DNA from: Methanobrevibacter sp.
Lineage (GTDB): Archaea > Methanobacteriota > Methanobacteria > Methanobacteriales > Methanobacteriaceae
Reading direction: 5' to 3'
NCBI RefSeq assembly: GCF_030539665.1
Contig: NZ_JAUNXR010000003.1
Coordinates: forward strand, 58,326 to 122,325
DNA length: 64,000 bases
The position numbers were made by a program, and so were the translations under genes. This document shows positions 42,387-61,119 of the stretch, in pieces; positions within the stretch are counted from its first letter, which is position 1; the number at the start of each line of letters is the position of its first letter. The notes under the pieces are model-generated. The model saw only the letters and a program-made list of their open reading frames with translations. It did no database searches and had not been told where the DNA came from.

Positions 42387-43538
42387 TTATTCAAAAACAA
42401 TTTCATGACATTTTTCTTTATCTGAAACTACTTCTGATAGCTTGTTGAAAGAATCAATGATTTTCTGATTTAACTCGTCCAATTCCAATCTGAAGGCATC
42501 TGAAGTGGACAGATCAAATCTTATTGTTGCAGATGCGCCAGGCATTGAAACTGCAGGAATTGTAATAATGCCCTCATCTTTCAGCAAAATCATTGCAAAG
42601 ATAAATGCAATATCATCTGGAGATAAATCGTTTTCAGCATTTAATTCACTGGCTAACTTTTCAGGAGTTACCATAACACCGGTAGGAGTCAATTCAAACA
42701 TTTCAAAATTCTCGTTGAGCAAATTTAAAAGGTCTTCTTTTCTATCAAAACTTTTAAGGAGATTATCTTCTGTGAAATTTTTAAGACCGTTAACCATTGC
42801 TAGAATAGATGGAGGCTGTGCTTCAAGACCAAATTGATTTGCCTTTATTTTGATTTGATCCAGATATTTCTCCTTACCTGCCATCAAACCTCCTCTAGGT
42901 CCCGGCATAAGCTTGTCAGTACTTGTAATTACAATGTCTGCCCCCAAATCACATGCTTTTTCCTGATTGAAAATTACAGTTCTTAAACGTGCCCCCGAAG
43001 CATCATCAACAAGAACCGGAATATCCCTTTCATGTGCTGAACTGATTATTTCTTTAAACTCATCCTCATCAATAACTTGATGATCCATTGTGGAACCTGT
43101 TATTACAATCAGTGATGTGTTTTCAGGAATGTTGAACTCATTGAAATCATCATATTCCTCATAGTTCGCACCTACAATTTCACAGCTTCTAGGTATTGAA
43201 GGATGAGCTGGCAGTTTAGCAAGATAGTGAACAACAGTGCTGTCTTTTTCAACTAATGCTAAAATAGTTGCCAATATACCTGATGATGTTCTGTTAAGAG
43301 GCAAAATCTTTTCCCCGCCCATATGATTTATACCTTCAACCTGCAATAGCTCTTCAAATACCGCAGGCCCAATATAGGTTTCAAGAAGACTTAATTCTTC
43401 ATCTGAAGCTATAAATCCTCCAGACAAACCAGTTAAATCAAAAAGTTTTTCTCTGCCTTTATCAATTACGATATTCTTTATAACTTTCAAAGAGTTTTCT
43501 CTTTTCTTAACTTCATCGAGGGAATTGTTAACTATCAT
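42387..43538 (-). CDS. SelA-like PLP-dependent enzyme (MJ0158 / TIGR03576-type), function unknown
   Basis: Fold-type I PLP protein. ITSTDKLMPGPRGG resembles the SelA PLP-lysine segment (SGDKLLGGPQAG). Confidence 0.62.
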   Translation of the reverse strand: MIVNNSLDEVKKRENSLKVIKNIVIDKGREKLFDLTGLSGGFIASDEELSLLETYIGPAVFEELLQVEGINHMGGEKILPLNRTSSGILATILALVEKDSTVVHYLAKLPAHPSIPRSCEIVGANYEEYDDFNEFNIPENTSLIVITGSTMDHQVIDEDEFKEIISSAHERDIPVLVDDASGARLRTVIFNQEKACDLGADIVITSTDKLMPGPRGGLMAGKEKYLDQIKIKANQFGLEAQPPSILAMVNGLKNFTEDNLLKSFDRKEDLLNLLNENFEMFELTPTGVMVTPEKLASELNAENDLSPDDIAFIFAMILLKDEGIITIPAVSMPGASATIRFDLSTSDAFRLELDELNQKIIDSFNKLSEVVSDKEKCHEIVFE

Positions 43539-44138
43539 CTAATCATCTAGTTCTAATTTGAAATCTTTAAATGCTTCATAGAAATGTTTAATGTTTTTAA
43601 CAGGTACTTCAATAGGATCTGCTGCTTCAACATTTCCATCATTATCCTCTTCCATATAGGAATACTCTAAAACAGCGATTTTACCTTCCAAAGTAGTCCA
43701 AAAGATAACACTGTCATGAATCTTAAGGTTCTTTTTACCTCGGTTAGGCATGAAAACCTCTAAAGAGGATGCAACCTGACTGTCGGTTTCAGCCACTTCC
43801 TCCTCATTCTTATAATCAATCAATTCCAATTTGTAATCCTTAAACTCTTCATAATATTTAACTAAATCCTCATCAGAAACAGGAATGAATTCTTCAATAT
43901 CCTCATCCACATCATATTCCACATCAAGAATCTTGCCTTCAGGGCTTGTTCTAAAAATCAAACCCATAATTCTGTCATCAGGCACTTCATCAAGCATGAA
44001 TGATAAGGACATTCCCAATTGATTGAAGAATTTTTCCCTTTCTTCTTCGTTTTTATTCACTTTCTTGATTTTAGTAGTTTTAGATTTTAATTTTTTTTCT
44101 GCTACTTCATTAATGTCAGCCATAATCTCCACATCCAA
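43539..44138 (-). CDS. acidic protein with two tandem ~65-aa repeats, function unknown
   Basis: 199-aa ORF. Its stop directly abuts the start of the SelA-like gene. Each repeat ends (Y/F)YE(E/A)FKD(Y/F)KLEL. Alternative ATG start at 44123. Confidence 0.6.
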   Translation of the reverse strand: MDVEIMADINEVAEKKLKSKTTKIKKVNKNEEEREKFFNQLGMSLSFMLDEVPDDRIMGLIFRTSPEGKILDVEYDVDEDIEEFIPVSDEDLVKYYEEFKDYKLELIDYKNEEEVAETDSQVASSLEVFMPNRGKKNLKIHDSVIFWTTLEGKIAVLEYSYMEEDNDGNVEAADPIEVPVKNIKHFYEAFKDFKLELDD

Positions 44139-44370
44139 AATGATATAATAATAATGAATTTTTATATAAAGTATTTTTAATTAATATATATAAATATACT
44201 GTTTGTTAAAATCCATTAATAATATTTTAGAATATGGAAAATTTAATAAATAATAATTATATTCCAATTTATATAATAATGACAACTTGAAATATTATTT
44301 TTTTAAAATCTCTGACAAATTTATTAACAGTGAAAACTTGGATAGAAGTTTTTTTATTTTTGTTGTAGAG

Positions 44371-44471
44371 ACCTAAATATTTGCAGGAAGATAATCATTT
44401 AATCATGTTTATTTTTATAACATGAACAACTCTTCTAAATCATAACTTCCTTTAATATTTTTTATTTCTTC
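44371..44471. repeat. left copy of ~100-bp imperfect inverted repeat
   Basis: Its reverse complement aligns by eye to 47311-47411 with roughly 8-9 differences, including two 1-nt indels. Contains the palindrome CATGTT-N9-AACATG at 44404-44424. Confidence 0.85.
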
Positions 44472-44494
44472 CCTAATACCATTATTACTTTCTT

Positions 44495-44905
44495 TCATAA
44501 AATTATCACATGATTGGGTTCTATTTTTTCATAAAAAAGTTTTTTGAATTCATTTAAACTTTTATAGAAATAAATTAATTCTTTATCATCTACTAATTCA
44601 ATAGATTTAGCAACATCCATTGTAAACTGTATTAATCCTTTTTCAAGTTTTTCATATTCTTCATCATCTGCTAAAACTAATTTTTCACTTAATTTTATAA
44701 ATAAATAATCAAATTCACTCAACATTTTTATTATCCTATCTTTATCAAAACCACTTTCTATTGCTATATCTAAAATTGAAAGAAGAGTGACTTTTGTCTT
44801 TTCTAAAGCAACTTTTGCTCTAGTTGTACATAAAAGACAATATGATCTATCAACATTTATTTTTACTTTTTCTCTTATTGGTCTTTTAGATTCATATATT
44901 ATCAT
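44495..44905 (-). CDS. hypothetical helical protein (orphan)
   Basis: 136-aa ORF with GGAG about 9 nt upstream of the ATG. No family recognised. Confidence 0.5.
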   Translation of the reverse strand: MIIYESKRPIREKVKINVDRSYCLLCTTRAKVALEKTKVTLLSILDIAIESGFDKDRIIKMLSEFDYLFIKLSEKLVLADDEEYEKLEKGLIQFTMDVAKSIELVDDKELIYFYKSLNEFKKLFYEKIEPNHVIIL

Positions 44906-45418
44906 TATTACTTCTCCTAAAATCTTTTAACTGATTTCATAAAGATTATGATTTAAAGTTTAGCTTCATCAATAGAAATTGGATTATCAAGAGTACCAAA
45001 AAATATCCGGAAGTCTACCTCTCAATACACCAATGTTTCCAATGGGAATATTTTCTTTTATCTTTTAAATATAGGAATTTAAAATGATCTAGTTTTTCTT
45101 CCATAGTTCCCATGTTTTTAATTTTTTTAACAAATTAAACGGTAACTAATATTATCCCAACCAGATTCACTAGCTAAACTAAGCCCCATAATTCTCAATT
45201 TTACCACGTTTTATCTTTTTTGTTATATATATAACTTATGTTTATGTTGTACTTTTTTAAATGTTTATATATGTCCAAAACCAATTCCATATTTGAATTT
45301 GCAAATTCATTTAAATATTTATCACAAAGAGAATCATTGTCAACAATTGAATCCGAATTGCATGTTTTAAGAATAAATCTTACACTCCCAAAAAATATAA
45401 TCTTTTCACTCTATTTAA

Positions 45419-46702
45419 TCATAGTTTTAAAGTACCTATAGGAATCACTTTAATGCCATCTTTTCGAGTGTATGCCAATTTACCACCAGTAACAATTGCT
45501 AAAAAACTAGGGGCTTTTAAATTTAGATTCTTTTCTTTAATATTCTTTTTAATAAGATTATCTAATTTGATGAGATTTTTAGATCCATCTTCAATTTCCA
45601 TTCGACCTAATTTAAATTCTATTAATCCATATCTCCCATCTCTTAAATGAACCACACAATCTACCTCTAGACCATACCGGTCTCTAAAATAAGACACTCT
45701 TCCTCCATAAGGAGCCAAATAAACATTTAAATCCCTAATACATAATGTTTCAAAAATAGATCCAAATGTTCTTAAGTCAAATTCTAATGATTGAGGATTT
45801 AAATTTAATGCTGCAACTGCTATTGATGGATCAATAAATTCTTTTTTAAAAGAAGATTTTATCGCTGTTTTAGATCTAATGTTTGGAGTCCATGCCCTAA
45901 CATTATCAATAACAAATAATCTTTCTAATGCATTTACATATGAATAAAAAGTATTTTGAGACATGTCTCCATAATTAGTTTTGATGTCCTTTAATATTGT
46001 TGAATTACTTGCTTCTGTTGAAATATTTCTAGCATAAGATGATAATATACTTCTAACCCTTAAAGGATCTCTTTTAACTCCATCAACTGTAGATATATCA
46101 TCATTACAAATACTGTTTAAATAGATATATGGTAATTCTAACTGATCGGTTTTATTCTCAAATTTTAAACTTGCTGGCCATCCACCTCTACAAGCAGCAA
46201 ATATTAAATCTTCCATAGATAAATCAGATTCTATACCATCAATATCCAAATTAGAATTATTAAATAAGTCAATTATTGATATTTTTCCATTAGATTCTTT
46301 ACTTTCATATAAACTCATAGGTCTCATCAATAGTCTAACTATCCTGCCCGTTCCAGTATGTATTATTTTACTTTCATCAACAGATGTTGAACCAGTTAAA
46401 ATATATAAACCTGTTTCATTTAACTCATAAACACTTACTCTAACAGCATCCCATAAAACTGGAGCTATTTGCCATTCATCAATTAAACGAGGTTTTTCAC
46501 CACTTAAAAGTTTTGATGGCTTATAATAAGCCCACTCCAAATACGATTCTCTTTCATCAACATTTTATAAATTTAATACGCTATTAGCATGCCTCTTTCC
46601 TGTTGTAGTTTTACCACACCATTTAGGACCCATTATAAGAACAGCACCCATTATTCTTAAATATTTATCCAACATTTCATCAAGAACACGATCATAATAC
46701 AT
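45419..46702 (-). pseudogene. AAA ATPase (DUF4143-type) disrupted by an in-frame TAA
   Basis: ATG 46702 opens MYYDRVLDEMLDKYLRIMGAVLIMGPKWCGKTTTGKRHANSVLNL, which carries a Walker A motif. A TAA at 46565-46567 follows, and the same frame continues into the 373-aa ORF 45419-46540. Confidence 0.75.
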
Positions 46703-46773
46703 TATTTTTCACCCTACATAAACATCCTTTTTAGATAAAAATTGTGATAAATTGAACTATCTAGTAGAATATT

Positions 46774-47203
46774 TTAATAGATTATACTTTCTTGATTATT
46801 TAATGTATTTTGTAAATATTCAAAGAAATATCCAAATTCATGACCATTAACAAAAATATGACTTACAGTTATTGATACAGAAATTTCATTATCTTTATTC
46901 ATTTTTCCCCATGTTAGTAAAGGTTGTATGGCATTACCATCAACAACACAATTTGTAATAGCATTGAAATCCACCCAAGGAATGAATAAACAATTAATAA
47001 TATTTTCTAAATCTATTTTTTCCATTTCAACAGAAAATCCAGGATTTTTCAAGTGATAAAATATCGTTTTCTAATTGTTTATATTCATCACCCCATTGCT
47101 TAATATTTTCAAATCCTGTTGGTGATGTTACATTCATTTCACAAAATATTTGTTTTTCTTCATCCATAGATGGTTGGTCATATTAATTTTTTTCAATATT
47201 CAT
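46774..47203 (-). pseudogene. chloramphenicol-acetyltransferase-like (CAT family) remnant, truncated and frameshifted
   Basis: C-terminal part LFIPWVDFNA...LLTWGK...ISVSITVSHIFVNGHEFGYFFEYLQ parallels CAT FFVSANPWVSFTSF...FTMGKY...LAIQVHHAVCDGFH. Upstream CAT-like residues are in another frame. ATG 47203 is followed by a stop after 6 codons. Total length is far too short for a CAT. Confidence 0.5.
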
Positions 47204-47310
47204 ATTATTACAAAATGGTAATTGAATTACTTATAATGCTTTATTTTGAGATTTTTCCTTAAAAAGTATTACTTTTGAATAGATTTTATAATTTTGACCA
47301 AGCCCCTAGA

Positions 47311-47411
47311 GAAGAAATAAAAAATATTAAAGAAGTTATGATTTAGAAGAGTTGATTATGTTATAAAAATAAATATGAAATTAATGATTATCTTCTTGCA
47401 AATATTTAGGT
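47311..47411. repeat. right copy of ~100-bp imperfect inverted repeat
   Basis: See the left copy at 44371-44471. Weaker similarity (shared AAATAAAAAAAC) extends about 25 nt outward on both sides. Confidence 0.85.
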
Positions 47412-47592
47412 TTCCCTAATAGAAATAAAAAAACATATTATTTAACTTATAAAACCAAATAATCATCAATATAACTTCTTAAAAGAATAAAGTTATTTAT
47501 TGTTAAGATACTTGAAATTCATATAAACCGTAATGACTTACTTTCCCTACAACTATATTATCAATAAAATATTGGATTTTATAAACAAAAAA

Positions 47593-47694
47593 TTATAAAG
47601 GAGTCCCACAAAAAGGACAAATTACTTCACCAGATTCAATAAATTCCCCACAAATCGGACAAATAAAATCTTCTTCTGAATCATCATAACACAT
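47593..47694 (-). CDS. 33-aa zinc-ribbon microprotein (CPxCG...CPxCG)
   Basis: Hand-translated MCYDDSEEDFICPICGEFIESGEVICPFCGTPL, with GGTGA 5 nt upstream of the ATG. Below the ORF-track cutoff. Confidence 0.4.
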   Translation of the reverse strand: MCYDDSEEDFICPICGEFIESGEVICPFCGTPL

Positions 47695-47903
47695 ATTTTC
47701 ACCTAATTATATACTTAATATGTATATAATTATTAATAAAGTTATCTAAAAGTAATTTCACTAATATGTCTTATATGTTATTAATAAGTAAACATTAGAT
47801 GTTTATTCATTGATTTTAATTATTGAATTTTTCGCAAAAAATCGAACATTGATTACTTATCAATGATGGAAAACCTACTGGAAAATGAATTTTAACAGAC
47901 CCA

Positions 47904-48273
47904 TCAATAAGAAGAGTATATATTTATTAACAATTTATCCAGTGAAACAACGTAGTCCAAATCAAATTTATTATGAATAACTATGCTGGAGCAATCAATA
48001 AAACTGGCTTTATAACTTTTATTGTTGTACTTTTTAAATATTTCCACTTCATTTACAATATTGAAGTTATCATCCAGATAGCAATATGCCTTGGTTAACT
48101 CGATACCCTTTGTTTTACCACAACGACAGTTATAATTTCATTTAAAACACCGTTGCTAATATAACATTCATTTTCAAAGAAAATGTTTTTGTTTTTTTCA
48201 ATAATCTGTCTGGATGAATCTTTTCTTTTAAAGATAGGCATAAAAATAATGTATCGATAAACAGTTTACTCAT
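47904..48273 (-). pseudogene. PIN-domain (VapC-like) toxin remnant with at least two frameshifts
   Basis: PIN-like pieces lie in three frames: MSKLFIDT...; IFFENECYISNGVLNEII...; and KAYCYLDDNFNIVNEVEIFKKYNNKSYKASFIDCSSIVIHNKFDLDYVVSLDK. The ATG overlaps the stop of an upstream antitoxin-like fragment. Confidence 0.45.
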
Positions 48274-48622
48274 TGTAGATCAACTCATCAACATTCCAGT
48301 CTTCATCATCATCAAACATCCCAAACACATTATCAAATGTATCATATTGTTTCCCCAGATATCCCAATCAAAAATTGTGTTTTCATCAATTGGAAAATCT
48401 TCAAATTCTCTTTTATGATTTTAGGTAAATGTAGCTCGTCTTACCATGAAGTTTACTAAGATAGTTAAAACTACAAAAAATCAAATGGGTTCGGCGAAAT
48501 GTTTTAAAGAACAAATCAATCAAAAAACATATCAATAACAACACAATTACCAAAAAAAACCCATATAACCTCACGACAATTTTAGACCATGCTATTATGA
48601 TTTAAAAGGAAATAATATATGA

Positions 48623-49144
48623 TTAATGTTCATCATATAAACTATTTCCATGGCTGTCCATAGCCACTATAAGAGGTCCGAAGTCCTTGACCTTTAATTG
48701 CCACATAGCTTCAGGCATTCCCAAATCAAGCCAGTTAACATTTTCTATTTCTTCAATAGCATCAACATATAATGCTGCACAGCCACCAGTAGCAACCACA
48801 TAAACTGCACCGTGCTCTTTTAATGCTTCCCTTACTGTATCGTCCATTCCCCCTTTTCCAATGATTATTTTAGGACCCATGGCAATTACATCTGCCTGAT
48901 ATGGATTCATCCTCATTGAAGTGGTAGGACCAATGGCCACCATCTTATAATCCCCATCTTCCTCAGTTATTATTGGGCCTGCATGGAACAGTGCAGTATT
49001 CTCGATATCTGCAGGAGCACCCTCTTCAAGAAGTCTTTTATGTGCTTGATCACGTGCAGTAAAAATTGTACCGGTTAAACTGATTACATCCCCAGCCTTA
49101 AGTTTTGTTAAATCCTCCTTAACAGGAACATTAATTTCAATCAT
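48623..49144 (-). CDS. fumarate hydratase class I, beta (C-terminal) subunit
   Basis: GTIFTARDQAHKRL and GKGGM motifs of Fe-S hydro-lyase beta subunits. Confidence 0.85.
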   Translation of the reverse strand: MIEINVPVKEDLTKLKAGDVISLTGTIFTARDQAHKRLLEEGAPADIENTALFHAGPIITEEDGDYKMVAIGPTTSMRMNPYQADVIAMGPKIIIGKGGMDDTVREALKEHGAVYVVATGGCAALYVDAIEEIENVNWLDLGMPEAMWQLKVKDFGPLIVAMDSHGNSLYDEH

Positions 49145-57768: not shown

Positions 57769-60700
57769 TTAGAATGGCAATTCAATATATCTAGCCTTGA
57801 ATTGATAGTTATAATTATTCCAATTATTTACAACACCGAAACTGTTTCTAGCACTTGTTGTATCAGCTACAACCCAAGTATCACCAATCAATACTTGTGC
57901 CCAAACATGCCCGTAAGTTCCTGAACTAAATTTACAAGTTCCATGGACATATCTTGCAGGCAATCCTGCAGCTCTAAACAATGCAATTACTGCACTTGCC
58001 TTATCACAACAGTTACCAGTCTTGTATTTGAACAATGTATTGTAAGCTCCATATCTAGTATTGTAATAGAATGAATATGAAACAGTATCCCTTACATAAT
58101 TAAATATAGCAGTAGCTTTTGCAACATCACTTTCCAAGCCTGCTGTTAATTTAGCAGCCAAAGCCTGAATTTCAGCATTGTCCACTTGACAATTCTTAGT
58201 TGGCTGTAAGTATGGAGTAAGGTTCTCTATATCATTAACATTATCCAAAGGACTTGATGGAATAGGTGCTGAGAAAGCTTTAAGAGTCACATAATTCGGC
58301 ATCATTCCGTTGTTTTCATAATATGCAACCACTCTTGCGAATGCATAAACTAAAGGATCATAACCAGATTTTCCTAAAGCGGTGTTCATTGAATCAGGAG
58401 CAATACCCTTCTCATCAATGTAACTTATAATATTATAAGCTGTTTCAATGTAACCGCTGAGCATGAGATTACCTGAAACGGTTGTTTTTACTGGATTTGC
58501 GGGATTTTGAACACTTGAAACATAAATGTTTCCGGTTTTACCTTCATTTAACATTACAGTAGCTTGTGCAAGCATGTATAAAAATTGAGGAGTAGTATAA
58601 GTTTCTCCATCGACAGTTACAGTGCTTGGCAATACATTGTTACTTTCAATGTATTTTTTCAATGTAGTAGCTGCAGTCAAAACTGATTTGAGTGGCACTC
58701 CACCTTTTACAGTTACAGTGCTTTTTCCTGAAACAGGAGCTTTTCCTTCAGGAGTATATGCATATGTAATGTTATAGCTACCTGGTTCCAATTTAGGCAA
58801 TGCGATTCTAGCAATACCATTATCATCAGTTACAGCAGAAATTTCATCATTTTCGATGGTAAAGATAATTTCCTTGCCTGCAATAGGCTTGCCATAAGCA
58901 TCAGTTAATGAAGCTTCATAAGAAGCATCTGAACCATATTCAACATCAATATTATTACCTTTAATTATAGTTCCGTTTACTATAATCTTATTTGAACCTA
59001 AATCAGAGGAATATTTGTCATTATCACAAACACGATAAGTTATATCGTAAACTCCAACAACTTTAAGCTCTATTTTCAAGGATGCAATACCTTGATCATT
59101 GGTAGTGGCAATATAAGACTTTCCAGCTACGGTTATGTTAACATTAACATTACTTACTGGAATAGTATTTTTATTGGTCACTAACACTTCAAAGTATTTT
59201 ACATCTCCAGGTTCCTTTACCATATCATTAGCTTCAACATTAAGTACTGCCTTGTTAACAGTCACATAATTGCTTCCATAACTGTAATCTTTTTCACCGA
59301 GTTTGGAATATGAATAATTGACCTCATATTTACCAGGAGCCAAATCATTAGGAATATCCAATTTAGCAATACCCTGATCATTTGTGACTACCTCTTTTGA
59401 TTCGCCGTTGAAGTTGACGTTAATGGTCTTGTCAGCTAATGGTTCCCCACTAATATTTTTTAAGGTTATTTCAAATTCAGCAGAATCACCATAAGGAACA
59501 CTAATGTCGCTACCACTTATTGCAGTAGTGGAATTGATAATAGTAATCTTACTTGAATCCTTAGAAGATTTATAATTCTTATCTCCAGCATATTCATAAT
59601 TAATGGTATTTTCACCTACAGGCAAACCTGTAAGATCTACCTTTGCAACACCTTTAGCATCAGTAGTTGCAGATATCTTTTTACCATTTACATTGAAATT
59701 GATTACTGCCTTATCTATAGGTTGTCCACTTTTAGAAGTTAAAGTGACATTATATGATACAGTAACATCTTTGATAGAAGATATATCATTACCTTTTATT
59801 ACGGAAGATGTTTGCAATACAGTTACCTTTTTACTTACTTGAGCATCATCAATAGCAGCAGTAACAGTATAAGTACCTACATTCAACCCAATAGGCAAAC
59901 TTGCAACACCATCAGCATTAGTCACTCTTTCATAAACAGGATTAGTACCAGTTTTTACAGTGAACTTAACAGTAACACCTTTCAAAGGAGCACCAGTAGC
60001 ATTGGTTACTTTAGCAGTAAATGCACTACCGTTCTTATACTCAAGTGTTAAGTCTGATGCTGTAATAACATCCTTAGGTTTAGGAAGTTCGTTACCTACA
60101 ACCAATGTATTATATACTGTACCATCAGGTATTGAAGAAGCAATAGAATAAGTACCTACAGCTAAATTAATAGGCAAACTTGCAATACCATCTGCATTGG
60201 TTACTTTATTATAACTATTAACAAGTTTGCCCTTGAGATAAATAGTAAATTTAACAGTAGCACCTTTTACAGGATTACCATTATTAGTTACCTTAGCAGT
60301 GAATGCACTACCATCCTTATAATGCATGTTTAAATTACTTGCAGTAATTACGTCCTTACCTTTTGAAACTACAGTAATCTTATTGGTTATTACTTTACTA
60401 TTACCTACTGAAGAAGTAATAGAATAAGTACCTACAGCTAAATTAATAGGCAAACTTGCAACACCATCAGCATTGGTTACTATATTATAAACAGGATTAG
60501 TACCAACTTTTACAGTGAACTTAACAGTAGCACCTGCAACTGGTTTACCTCCACCAGTAACAGTAGCTTTAAAACTACCATCCTTATAAGTTATAGTAAC
60601 ATCATTAGCAGATACTTCCACAGGAAGTACTTTAATAGTGTTTGTAACATTAAAATCTTCAAAAGTAGATTTGACAGTGTAGTCACCAGGGTTTAAACCA

Positions 60701-61119
60701 ATGACCAATGTTGCAATACCATCTGCATTGGTAATTTTATTATATTGTGCTGGATTTTTCCAGCTTGAACTTGAAAGAGTAATTGTAATAGTTTTGTTAG
60801 CTACAGGAGCACCGGTACTATCTTTAAGAGAAACATCATATTGAGTACCGTTTTGACAATATTTCACAACATCTTCAGCGTTTAACTTATAATCTCCTGA
60901 AGATGAAGGGCTCTGAGCATAAACTCTTCCATTATTTACATTGTTTTGATTATTCCCATCAATAGAATCATGATTTTCCACAATTATATTATCGTTAGAA
61001 CAATTAACTAAATTAGTTTCTGAGATAGAGTTACTAGAAACTTTTGAATTATCATTATCAACATCAGCTGCAGCCACTGATCCTAAAAATACGAGGAATA
61101 TGCAGACTACAGAAATCAA
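57769..61119 (-). CDS. adhesin-like surface protein: signal peptide, ~8 Ig-like repeats, pseudomurein-binding repeats, C-terminal transglutaminase-like cysteine protease domain
   Basis: N-terminal hydrophobic signal peptide. About eight ~90-aa repeats with the core TNADG(V/I)ASLPI.L.VGTY. Two PMBR-like segments (LKKYIESNNVLPSTVTVDGETYTTPQFLYMLAQA; VVAYYENNGMMPNYVTL). C-terminus carries GNCCDKAS...GHVWAQV...VADTT, a Cys-His-Asp arrangement. Confidence 0.85.
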   Translation of the reverse strand: MISVVCIFLVFLGSVAAADVDNDNSKVSSNSISETNLVNCSNDNIIVENHDSIDGNNQNNVNNGRVYAQSPSSSGDYKLNAEDVVKYCQNGTQYDVSLKDSTGAPVANKTITITLSSSSWKNPAQYNKITNADGIATLVIGLNPGDYTVKSTFEDFNVTNTIKVLPVEVSANDVTITYKDGSFKATVTGGGKPVAGATVKFTVKVGTNPVYNIVTNADGVASLPINLAVGTYSITSSVGNSKVITNKITVVSKGKDVITASNLNMHYKDGSAFTAKVTNNGNPVKGATVKFTIYLKGKLVNSYNKVTNADGIASLPINLAVGTYSIASSIPDGTVYNTLVVGNELPKPKDVITASDLTLEYKNGSAFTAKVTNATGAPLKGVTVKFTVKTGTNPVYERVTNADGVASLPIGLNVGTYTVTAAIDDAQVSKKVTVLQTSSVIKGNDISSIKDVTVSYNVTLTSKSGQPIDKAVINFNVNGKKISATTDAKGVAKVDLTGLPVGENTINYEYAGDKNYKSSKDSSKITIINSTTAISGSDISVPYGDSAEFEITLKNISGEPLADKTINVNFNGESKEVVTNDQGIAKLDIPNDLAPGKYEVNYSYSKLGEKDYSYGSNYVTVNKAVLNVEANDMVKEPGDVKYFEVLVTNKNTIPVSNVNVNITVAGKSYIATTNDQGIASLKIELKVVGVYDITYRVCDNDKYSSDLGSNKIIVNGTIIKGNNIDVEYGSDASYEASLTDAYGKPIAGKEIIFTIENDEISAVTDDNGIARIALPKLEPGSYNITYAYTPEGKAPVSGKSTVTVKGGVPLKSVLTAATTLKKYIESNNVLPSTVTVDGETYTTPQFLYMLAQATVMLNEGKTGNIYVSSVQNPANPVKTTVSGNLMLSGYIETAYNIISYIDEKGIAPDSMNTALGKSGYDPLVYAFARVVAYYENNGMMPNYVTLKAFSAPIPSSPLDNVNDIENLTPYLQPTKNCQVDNAEIQALAAKLTAGLESDVAKATAIFNYVRDTVSYSFYYNTRYGAYNTLFKYKTGNCCDKASAVIALFRAAGLPARYVHGTCKFSSGTYGHVWAQVLIGDTWVVADTTSARNSFGVVNNWNNYNYQFKARYIELPF
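58700..60891 (-). repeat. intragenic tandem ~276-nt (92-codon) repeats encoding Ig-like modules
   Basis: For example, 60134-60203 and 60410-60479 differ at only about 4 of 70 nt and are offset by exactly 276 nt. A third related copy lies near 59870-59990. Confidence 0.85.

Follow-up and report, generated by a model that had tools for sequence, protein, structure and literature searches.

The stretch analysed here, referred to as the window, comprises 64,000 nucleotides (nt) of contig NZ_JAUNXR010000003.1 (positions 58,326 to 122,325 of the forward strand, assembly GCF_030539665.1) from Methanobrevibacter sp., an uncultured gut or rumen methanogen. Between fumB, which encodes the beta subunit of fumarate hydratase, and a gene encoding a 199-aa protein (p199), the window shows a lineage-specific, low-GC accessory islet of ~4.4 kb (~44198-48622), and this islet contains an imperfect inverted repeat (IR) whose two arms lie ~2.8 kb apart and bracket an orphan open reading frame (ORF) and broken genes. 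The IR is real and well beyond chance, and no other long IR is found in the 64-kb window.

The left arm (44348-44475, 128 nt) is the better-preserved copy, and the right arm (47307-47434, 128 nt) is 88.4% identical to its reverse complement. Both were delimited by a repeat search of the window, in which the pair was assembled from three adjoining inverted segments, and by MAFFT and blastn. The alignment of the arms has 129 columns with two 1-nt gaps and 13 mismatches (nine transitions and four transversions), the differences are scattered along the arms, and no run of uninterrupted identity exceeds 22 nt. Within the window, the pair scores 159 bits in blastn (E 2e-41), versus a best inverted self-match of 46 bits in 60 dinucleotide-preserving shuffles of 43000-49000. 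The segment bounded by the IR measures 3.09 kb, and the arms are copies of an AT-rich, non-coding segment in DNA that is locally ~80% A+T. An initial annotation, made by eye from the sequence, had described a long imperfect IR around a gene cassette, with 8-9 differences over 101 nt (44371-44471) and weaker similarity about 25 nt further outward. The repeat was borne out by blastn, MAFFT and the shuffles, which exclude chance similarity of AT-rich DNA, and the identity judged by eye holds under proper alignment, with eight differences counted in 102 columns, both indels included. The 101-nt stretch was confirmed, and the weaker outward similarity is genuine and forms part of the arms proper, whose true length is 128 nt and not 101.

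The islet and its genomic setting

The islet fills the spacer between two sets of core genes: on the p199 side, those encoding pyruvate carboxylase subunit A, BirA, a UPF0425/SelA-like pyridoxal phosphate (PLP) protein and p199 itself, and on the other side fumB and a gene encoding a DUF2070 membrane protein. The GTDB representative genomes were scanned with the UPF0425 protein, which gave 74 loci from relatives. The order DUF2070(-), fumB, p199, UPF0425, BirA(-) is present in ~60 Methanobrevibacter genomes, in which fumB and p199 are 60-320 nt apart, versus 4.5 kb in the window. Towards p199, homology to the relatives ends at ~44197-44224, a short distance upstream of a conserved TATA-like sequence, ATATTTATATAT; towards fumB it ends at ~48601-48629, directly past the fumB stop. 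GC content is 17-29% in the islet versus 33-40% in the flanking genes, and the coding remnants of the islet are all on the minus strand, as are fumB and p199. Five relatives show the empty site: L049 (p199 95% identical at the aa level), L004 and L084 (91%), L072 and L005. The species of the window is not among the GTDB representatives searched, where the best UPF0425 identity is 87%, and the islet-bearing species was seen elsewhere only in the Logan sample SRR24915810. Closer relatives were also sought in JGI metagenomes, which gave a single locus, equivalent to L004 and islet-free.

A reading held to be unlikely takes the arms as terminal inverted repeats (TIRs) of a defunct, non-autonomous transposable element that sits in an older islet, brought some of its cargo and has lost its target-site duplication (TSD). 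An IR of 128 nt at both ends, 88.4% identical and with sharp outer limits, fits such termini, as does the location of the islet at an insertion hotspot (see below). Against them stand the empty sites, which in all five relatives break at ~44198/48622 and not at the arm ends. Islet DNA continues past both arms, for ~150 nt on the left and 1.19 kb on the right, and from these break-points it follows that the 3.1 kb bounded by the IR is not the insertion unit, but only the middle of the islet. The IR termini (44348 and 47434) can thus not be taken as the limits of an insertion. The junctions of the islet have merely AT-rich 8-mers in common; neither att-like repeats nor a TSD are found there, and no integrase or tRNA target was found for the islet. 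An origin of the islet from a phage or plasmid was rejected, as the whole islet gave no blastn match in phage and plasmid collections.

Other Methanobrevibacter species carry other DNA in the same neighbourhood. The fumB-p199 spacer of L022 contains a 5.2-kb glycogen-synthesis operon (L022 4456-9653), and L025 (75-2809) shows, beside fumB, two intact convergent DUF4143 ATPase paralogs of 424 and 429 aa, with ~73% nt identity to each other. In L020, L021, L024 and L031, multi-kb insertions are located one gene further on, between the DUF2070 gene and fumB. Within Methanobrevibacter, DNA has been inserted repeatedly into the DUF2070-fumB-p199 neighbourhood. The gene-length inverted paralogs of L025 indicate that inverted duplicates do arise at this hotspot in the genus, and apart from them no IR-bracketed insertion was found at the hotspot in other species.

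The p199 gene (43539-44138, minus strand) resembles a tandem internal duplication, since residues ~6-108 and 110-199 of its product match the same domain of ~110 aa. Most Methanobrevibacter homologs are single-domain proteins of ~115 aa, and the double-length form is found only in the closest relatives (L049, L004, L072, L005 and L045). Elsewhere in the window, tandem coding repeats of ~276-285 nt (59835-60744; three to four copies, 62-94% identity) lie in an ORF of 1116 aa (57769-61119, minus strand).

Genes of the islet

The contents of the bracketed segment are those described initially, a 136-aa orphan, a DUF4143 ATPase gene killed by a nonsense codon and a CAT-like fragment. The orphan ORF, p136 (44495-44905, minus strand), has its stop 19 nt from the left arm. 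Neither a search of 5.8 billion clustered proteins nor an exhaustive HMMER reading of 1.84 billion representatives gave a homolog, the sole match being p136 itself, as the protein Q4P18_04630 of an NCBI metagenome-assembled genome. It shows no match in Pfam, NCBIfam, PHROG or PDB, its PADLOC match is insignificant, and its single-sequence AlphaFold2 (AF2) model is a low-confidence helical bundle (pLDDT 57). The possibility that p136 is a hidden recombinase or DNA-binding factor was discarded, as no protein family, structure or homolog could be matched to it. The C-terminus of p136 (44549-44629, minus strand) weakly resembles the C-terminal catalytic-His region of CatA-like proteins (KELIYFYKSLNE versus RELGYFYQYLQE), with 11 of 27 residues identical in pairwise BLASTP (E 5e-4) and an hhalign probability of 7%. 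Since the BLASTP match is lost in the profile comparison, p136 was not taken to be a decayed CAT fragment; on sequence resemblance, p136 might hold a scrap of a second CAT copy. A 507-nt spacer (44906-45412) with stops in all six frames separates p136 from the next gene.

This gene is a pseudogene of an AAA_14/DUF4143 ATPase (45413-46723, minus strand; 1.31-kb unit), delimited by Pfam, PADLOC and alignment with L078; its product contains AAA_14 and DUF4143 domains (DUF4143 E 4e-31) and matches the PADLOC model PDC-S01 (E 7e-44). Its single lesion is an in-frame change from CAA to TAA at codon 46 (46565-46567), a position at which the intact homolog keeps CAA. There is no intact ORF of ~425 aa, since the TAA interrupts it, and the gene is a pseudogene of the PDC-S01 family; the product is otherwise identical at 393 of 427 positions (92%) to the intact protein P0002. 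The gene of P0002 is on the ENA contig L078 (9979-11290), from another Methanobrevibacter metagenome, with a TOBE regulator gene on one side and a polysaccharide-synthesis gene on the other. Nucleotide identity between L078 and the window is 91.6% over exactly 45413-46723, that is, the ORF with 21 nt upstream of it and another 6 nt downstream. Beyond this unit the two copies have unrelated flanks, and no terminal repeats, duplications or recombinase were found at the L078 unit. As the ATPase gene recurs alone at an unrelated locus, it is an independent unit inside the supposed cassette, and the extent of the alignment suggests that it moves, or undergoes conversion, as a bare unit the size of its ORF.

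The third gene is a remnant of a CatA-like O-acetyltransferase (46774-47173, minus strand), which retains residues 81-211 of ~214; the 80 N-terminal codons are gone and the frame is shifted near 47048-47052. Its nearest intact homologs, with 65-68% aa identity, are in another, conserved neighbourhood, adjoining a pyridine-nucleotide disulfide oxidoreductase gene. The description of the bracketed DNA as one cassette does not stand, since the ATPase unit recurs alone and the intact CAT homologs have other neighbours; it is a mosaic. The enclosed genes look foreign and are of low GC content, which agrees with a transposon between the arms, but a mosaic cargo with an independently mobile ATPase unit does not.

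Outside the right arm, the islet continues for 1.19 kb (47435-48622) with no long ORF and with stops in all frames, except for an ORF of 33 aa with a CxxC…CxxC zinc-ribbon pattern (47593-47694, minus strand). The Logan assembly has a gene call for this ORF, which shows only weak matches to zinc-ribbon and rubredoxin-like models; nothing else in this part of the islet is a plausible coding remnant.

The islet resembles variable accessory or defence islets of chromosomal insertion hotspots, which hold decaying cargo and rearrangement scars, in being low-GC, lineage-specific DNA located between core genes, at a site where other species carry other cargo. Pseudogenes, an orphan ORF and a PDC-S01 candidate-defence ATPase are also cargo of this kind, the DUF4143/COG1373 domain of the latter belonging to the PD-(D/E)XK nuclease superfamily (PMC3424549). 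It differs from them in its tiny size (4.4 kb), in having no integrase, tRNA target or att repeats, and in its 128-nt IR, which is without counterpart in the islets of the relatives.

Sequence of the arms

The left arm contains the palindrome CATGTT-N9-AACATG (44404-44424) with a 6-bp stem, which is the centre of a partial dyad symmetry of this arm; in the right arm it has decayed to four of six pairs. Both the palindrome and its degradation had been pointed out initially and are confirmed. In the left arm, a long imperfect hairpin can form around the palindrome (z = -2.5 as RNA, -1.8 as DNA), and the fold of the right arm is no better than shuffles (z -0.7 to +0.5). RNAalifold on both arms keeps 18 pairs, with one two-sided change, and no Rfam match was found at E <= 1 on either strand of 43500-49000. 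Folding both copies, as had been proposed, thus gave a hairpin without statistical or comparative support, which is not conserved.

A functional role of the IR, either as a duplicated terminator or regulatory module or as a 128-bp panhandle in a read-through minus-strand transcript that would affect its stability, is very improbable. The left arm begins 19 nt past the p136 stop, T-runs are present at the arm ends on one strand, and the islet genes are co-oriented, so that one transcript could span both arms. On the sense strand of p136, however, which is that of the other islet genes, the left arm is rich in A and not in T, which rules it out as an oligo-T terminator of the archaeal type for p136. 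The would-be target genes are broken, and nothing comparable is conserved in the relatives. The arm was rejected as a structured RNA or terminator on the absence of an Rfam match and on the fold of one copy, which does not exceed shuffles.

The 10-mer TTTTTTATTT bounds the left arm at 44350 and 44458, in direct orientation and 108 nt apart, and its complement AAATAAAAAA bounds the right arm at 47315 and 47423. Together they account for four of the 10 occurrences of TTTTTTATTT on both strands of the window. The pairing has, by our own estimate, p of roughly 0.01-0.02 for one ancestral unit, and it is suggestive of a discrete element, although not compelling in DNA of 80% A+T.

Each arm could by itself be a small insertion of ~108-128 nt, palindromic or similar to a transposable element of the miniature inverted-repeat type (MITE), of which two copies would stand in opposite orientation 2.8 kb apart. 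This is quite doubtful. In its favour, both ends of each arm are sharp, the 10-nt direct repeat is present at both ends of each arm, and there is partial internal dyad symmetry per arm. However, the 10-mers are identical across the arms and fall within their homology, which means that they do not represent independent target duplications, and the dyad is non-terminal and has not been preserved in the right copy. The ends of a single arm, GTTTTTTTATTT… and …TTTCTTCCCTA, are not complementary, and the dyad is internal and asymmetric, so that no TIRs were found within one arm. No duplication flanks either arm: the left one is preceded by …GGATAGAA and followed by ATACCATT…, and the right one by …AAGCCCC and ATATTATT…, respectively. 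As in MITEs and other non-autonomous derivatives of insertion sequences (IS), the arm is short, non-coding, AT-rich, sharp-ended and gene-adjacent, with some dyad symmetry; unlike them, it has no TIRs of its own, no TSD and, in the DNA searched, no family of multiple copies.

The attC sites of integrons are likewise imperfect palindromes of ~60-140 nt directly 3' of an ORF, as the left arm is after p136. Unlike attC sites, the arms are without RYYYAAC or GTTRRRY core sites, the sole regular-expression match being inside the ATPase ORF; the copies are inverted and not direct, there is no IntI, and the right arm is not 3' of an ORF.

No reading frame is open across an arm, in agreement with the initial failure to read an ORF through the repeat. 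Only the tail of a small ORF of 27 codons (MKESNNGIREEIKNIKGSYDLEELFML; 44415-44498, minus strand) enters the inner end of the left arm, with its last 19 (~20) codons, and the p136 stop (TGA) overlaps its ATG. Judging from the sequence, this small ORF is unlikely to be a gene, since the repeat begins in the middle of the ORF and the copy in the right arm is frameshifted. A derivation of the arm from the 3' end of fumB was also rejected: an 18/20-nt match at 48735-48754 is at chance level, as 7-10 of 756 window tiles do equally well, and by the same tile test so is the peptide echo between fumB and the arm (EEIKNIK and EEIENVN).

Mobility and origin of the inverted repeat

No TSD was found outside the arm pair, where …TTGGATAGAA before the left arm and ATATTATTTA… after the right arm have no direct repeat in common, so that the search proposed for such duplications was negative for the pair as well as for each arm. 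Recombinase and transposase domains are absent from the islet and from the called genes of 32387-59144 in the window, that is, within ~10 kb either side, and the initial statement that no transposase or integrase is visible inside or beside the segment holds for these genes. Both negatives weigh against transposon termini, and typical IS termini are far shorter than 128 nt. Casposons, which are self-synthesising transposons with long TIRs reported in methanogens, resemble the locus in showing long inverted repeats in an archaeal genome. Unlike them, the islet is far too small, Pfam detects no Cas1 or family-B polymerase in its ORFs, and a 14-15-bp TSD is absent.

The arm was searched for further copies in ~79 kb of same-sample DNA, out of a genome estimated at ~2 Mb. 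No third copy was found in the window (blastn with word size 7, nhmmer), in the 3.9 kb past its right end (L085) or in 11.3 kb of a same-sample contig beside a second ATPase paralog (L086). Nor did nhmmer (E <= 10) find the arm in ~1.3 Mb of related loci from Methanobrevibacter and Methanobacterium. Among public collections, the exact 22-mer common to both arms gave 0 matches in the GTDB representative genomes, a 23-mer with one degenerate position gave 0 in the JGI metagenomes, and either k-mer pattern gave 0 in IMG/VR. The copy count suggested initially thus stays at two, and neither a third copy of a MITE-like insertion nor a second transposon with these ends is present in the DNA and collections searched. 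Initially, uniqueness of the repeat to this locus, without polymorphism, had been named as evidence against its explanations; it brings the mobile-element readings near to refutation, but not fully, given that ~79 kb of ~2 Mb was searched. An association of the arm with the ATPase family was rejected, as the arm is absent beside the L078 copy, the same-sample paralog of L086 and the paired ATPases of L025, and an association with the CAT family was rejected on its absence from five loci with intact homologs.

Two Logan contigs of SRR24915810, which match the window at 100% and 99.99% identity, cross the left and the right arm, respectively, without a break; they end inside the ATPase gene (46300-46328) and not at the arms. 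This sole independent assembly is unbranched through both arms and has the orientation of the window, so the proposed check for inversion gave no sign of a second orientation of the segment, one short-read assembly being weak evidence on this point. The contigs of SRR24915810 break in or beside DUF4143 ATPase genes, at this locus and at position 1 of L086 (paralog of contig 1371), which suggests that several near-identical ATPase paralogs or strain variants fragment the assembly.

That the IR forms the edges of an invertible switch, flipped by site-specific or homologous recombination, is the least credible of the explanations. The geometry fits, with an IR around 2.8 kb, and is shared with invertons, in which an IR also surrounds a DNA segment, although the repeats of these are typically tens of nt and not 128 nt. 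Against a switch, and unlike in invertons, no invertase or recombinase is found in the called genes mentioned above, the enclosed genes are all dead or orphan, and one assembly shows a single orientation. Identity between the arms is, moreover, only 88%, and it extends for at most 22 nt without interruption.

The four mechanisms offered initially (element termini, a MITE pair, inversion and a regulatory module) gained no support. The interpretation preferred here, to which about an even chance is given, is that the IR is an inverted duplication, a scar of islet assembly, that drifts neutrally in a decaying accessory islet. The islet would have been built by illegitimate recombination as a patchwork of separately acquired pieces, and would now be decaying. 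One 128-nt segment would have been copied in inverted orientation during this assembly, later insertions, at least that of the 1.3-kb ATPase unit, would have pushed the copies apart, and both would then have drifted neutrally to 88% identity. The IR would be inert today, and at most a poor substrate for rare homologous inversion, given that its longest uninterrupted identity is 22 nt; minimal homology lengths are the basis for this assessment. The scattered differences, the transition-to-transversion ratio of 9:4 and the two indels fit neutral drift, as far as sequence comparison can tell. This interpretation is also supported by an islet larger than the IR-bounded segment, its position at a hotspot, its mosaic cargo and its >1.7 kb of non-coding DNA. 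Further support comes from the absence of a TSD, the uniqueness of the arm in the DNA searched, the loss of the palindrome in one copy, and the contigs of SRR24915810, which cross the arms unbroken and in unchanged orientation.

Several points weigh against an inverted duplication. Its origin, the order of events and their neutrality are inferred, with no duplication step directly observed, and the copies made by simple template-switch duplications are usually less than 1.5-2.8 kb apart. The arms have sharp limits at all four ends, and the DNA adjoining each of these is unrelated, which fits a discrete element, as the pairing of the 10-mers also does. The partial dyad symmetry of the left arm (RNA z = -2.5) would fit a small mobile element, and the fraction of the genome searched leaves room for a low-copy family. 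A slim chance is left to a more far-reaching reading, in which the arms are what remains of an old, decayed and previously undescribed archaeal carrier of cassettes. It would be non-autonomous and TSD-less, with TIRs of ~130 nt, and, mobilised in trans, would have shuttled small genes for defence or resistance, such as those of the PDC-S01 ATPase and the CatA-like acetyltransferase, into hotspots on Methanobrevibacter chromosomes.

The IR is a further instance of a familiar feature, namely a scar of rearrangement within a variable islet of small size, and not a new type of system. In itself it has little significance, and the outcomes are chiefly negative and cautionary: even when a long IR around genes is statistically solid, it speaks for a mobile element only if the insertion break-points fall at its ends, and here they do not. 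For the genus, the analysis documents the fumB-p199 spacer as a recurrent insertion site of Methanobrevibacter. The relocation of an ORF-sized ATPase unit without repeats or recombinase is the better lead on how these abundant candidate defence genes spread among archaea.

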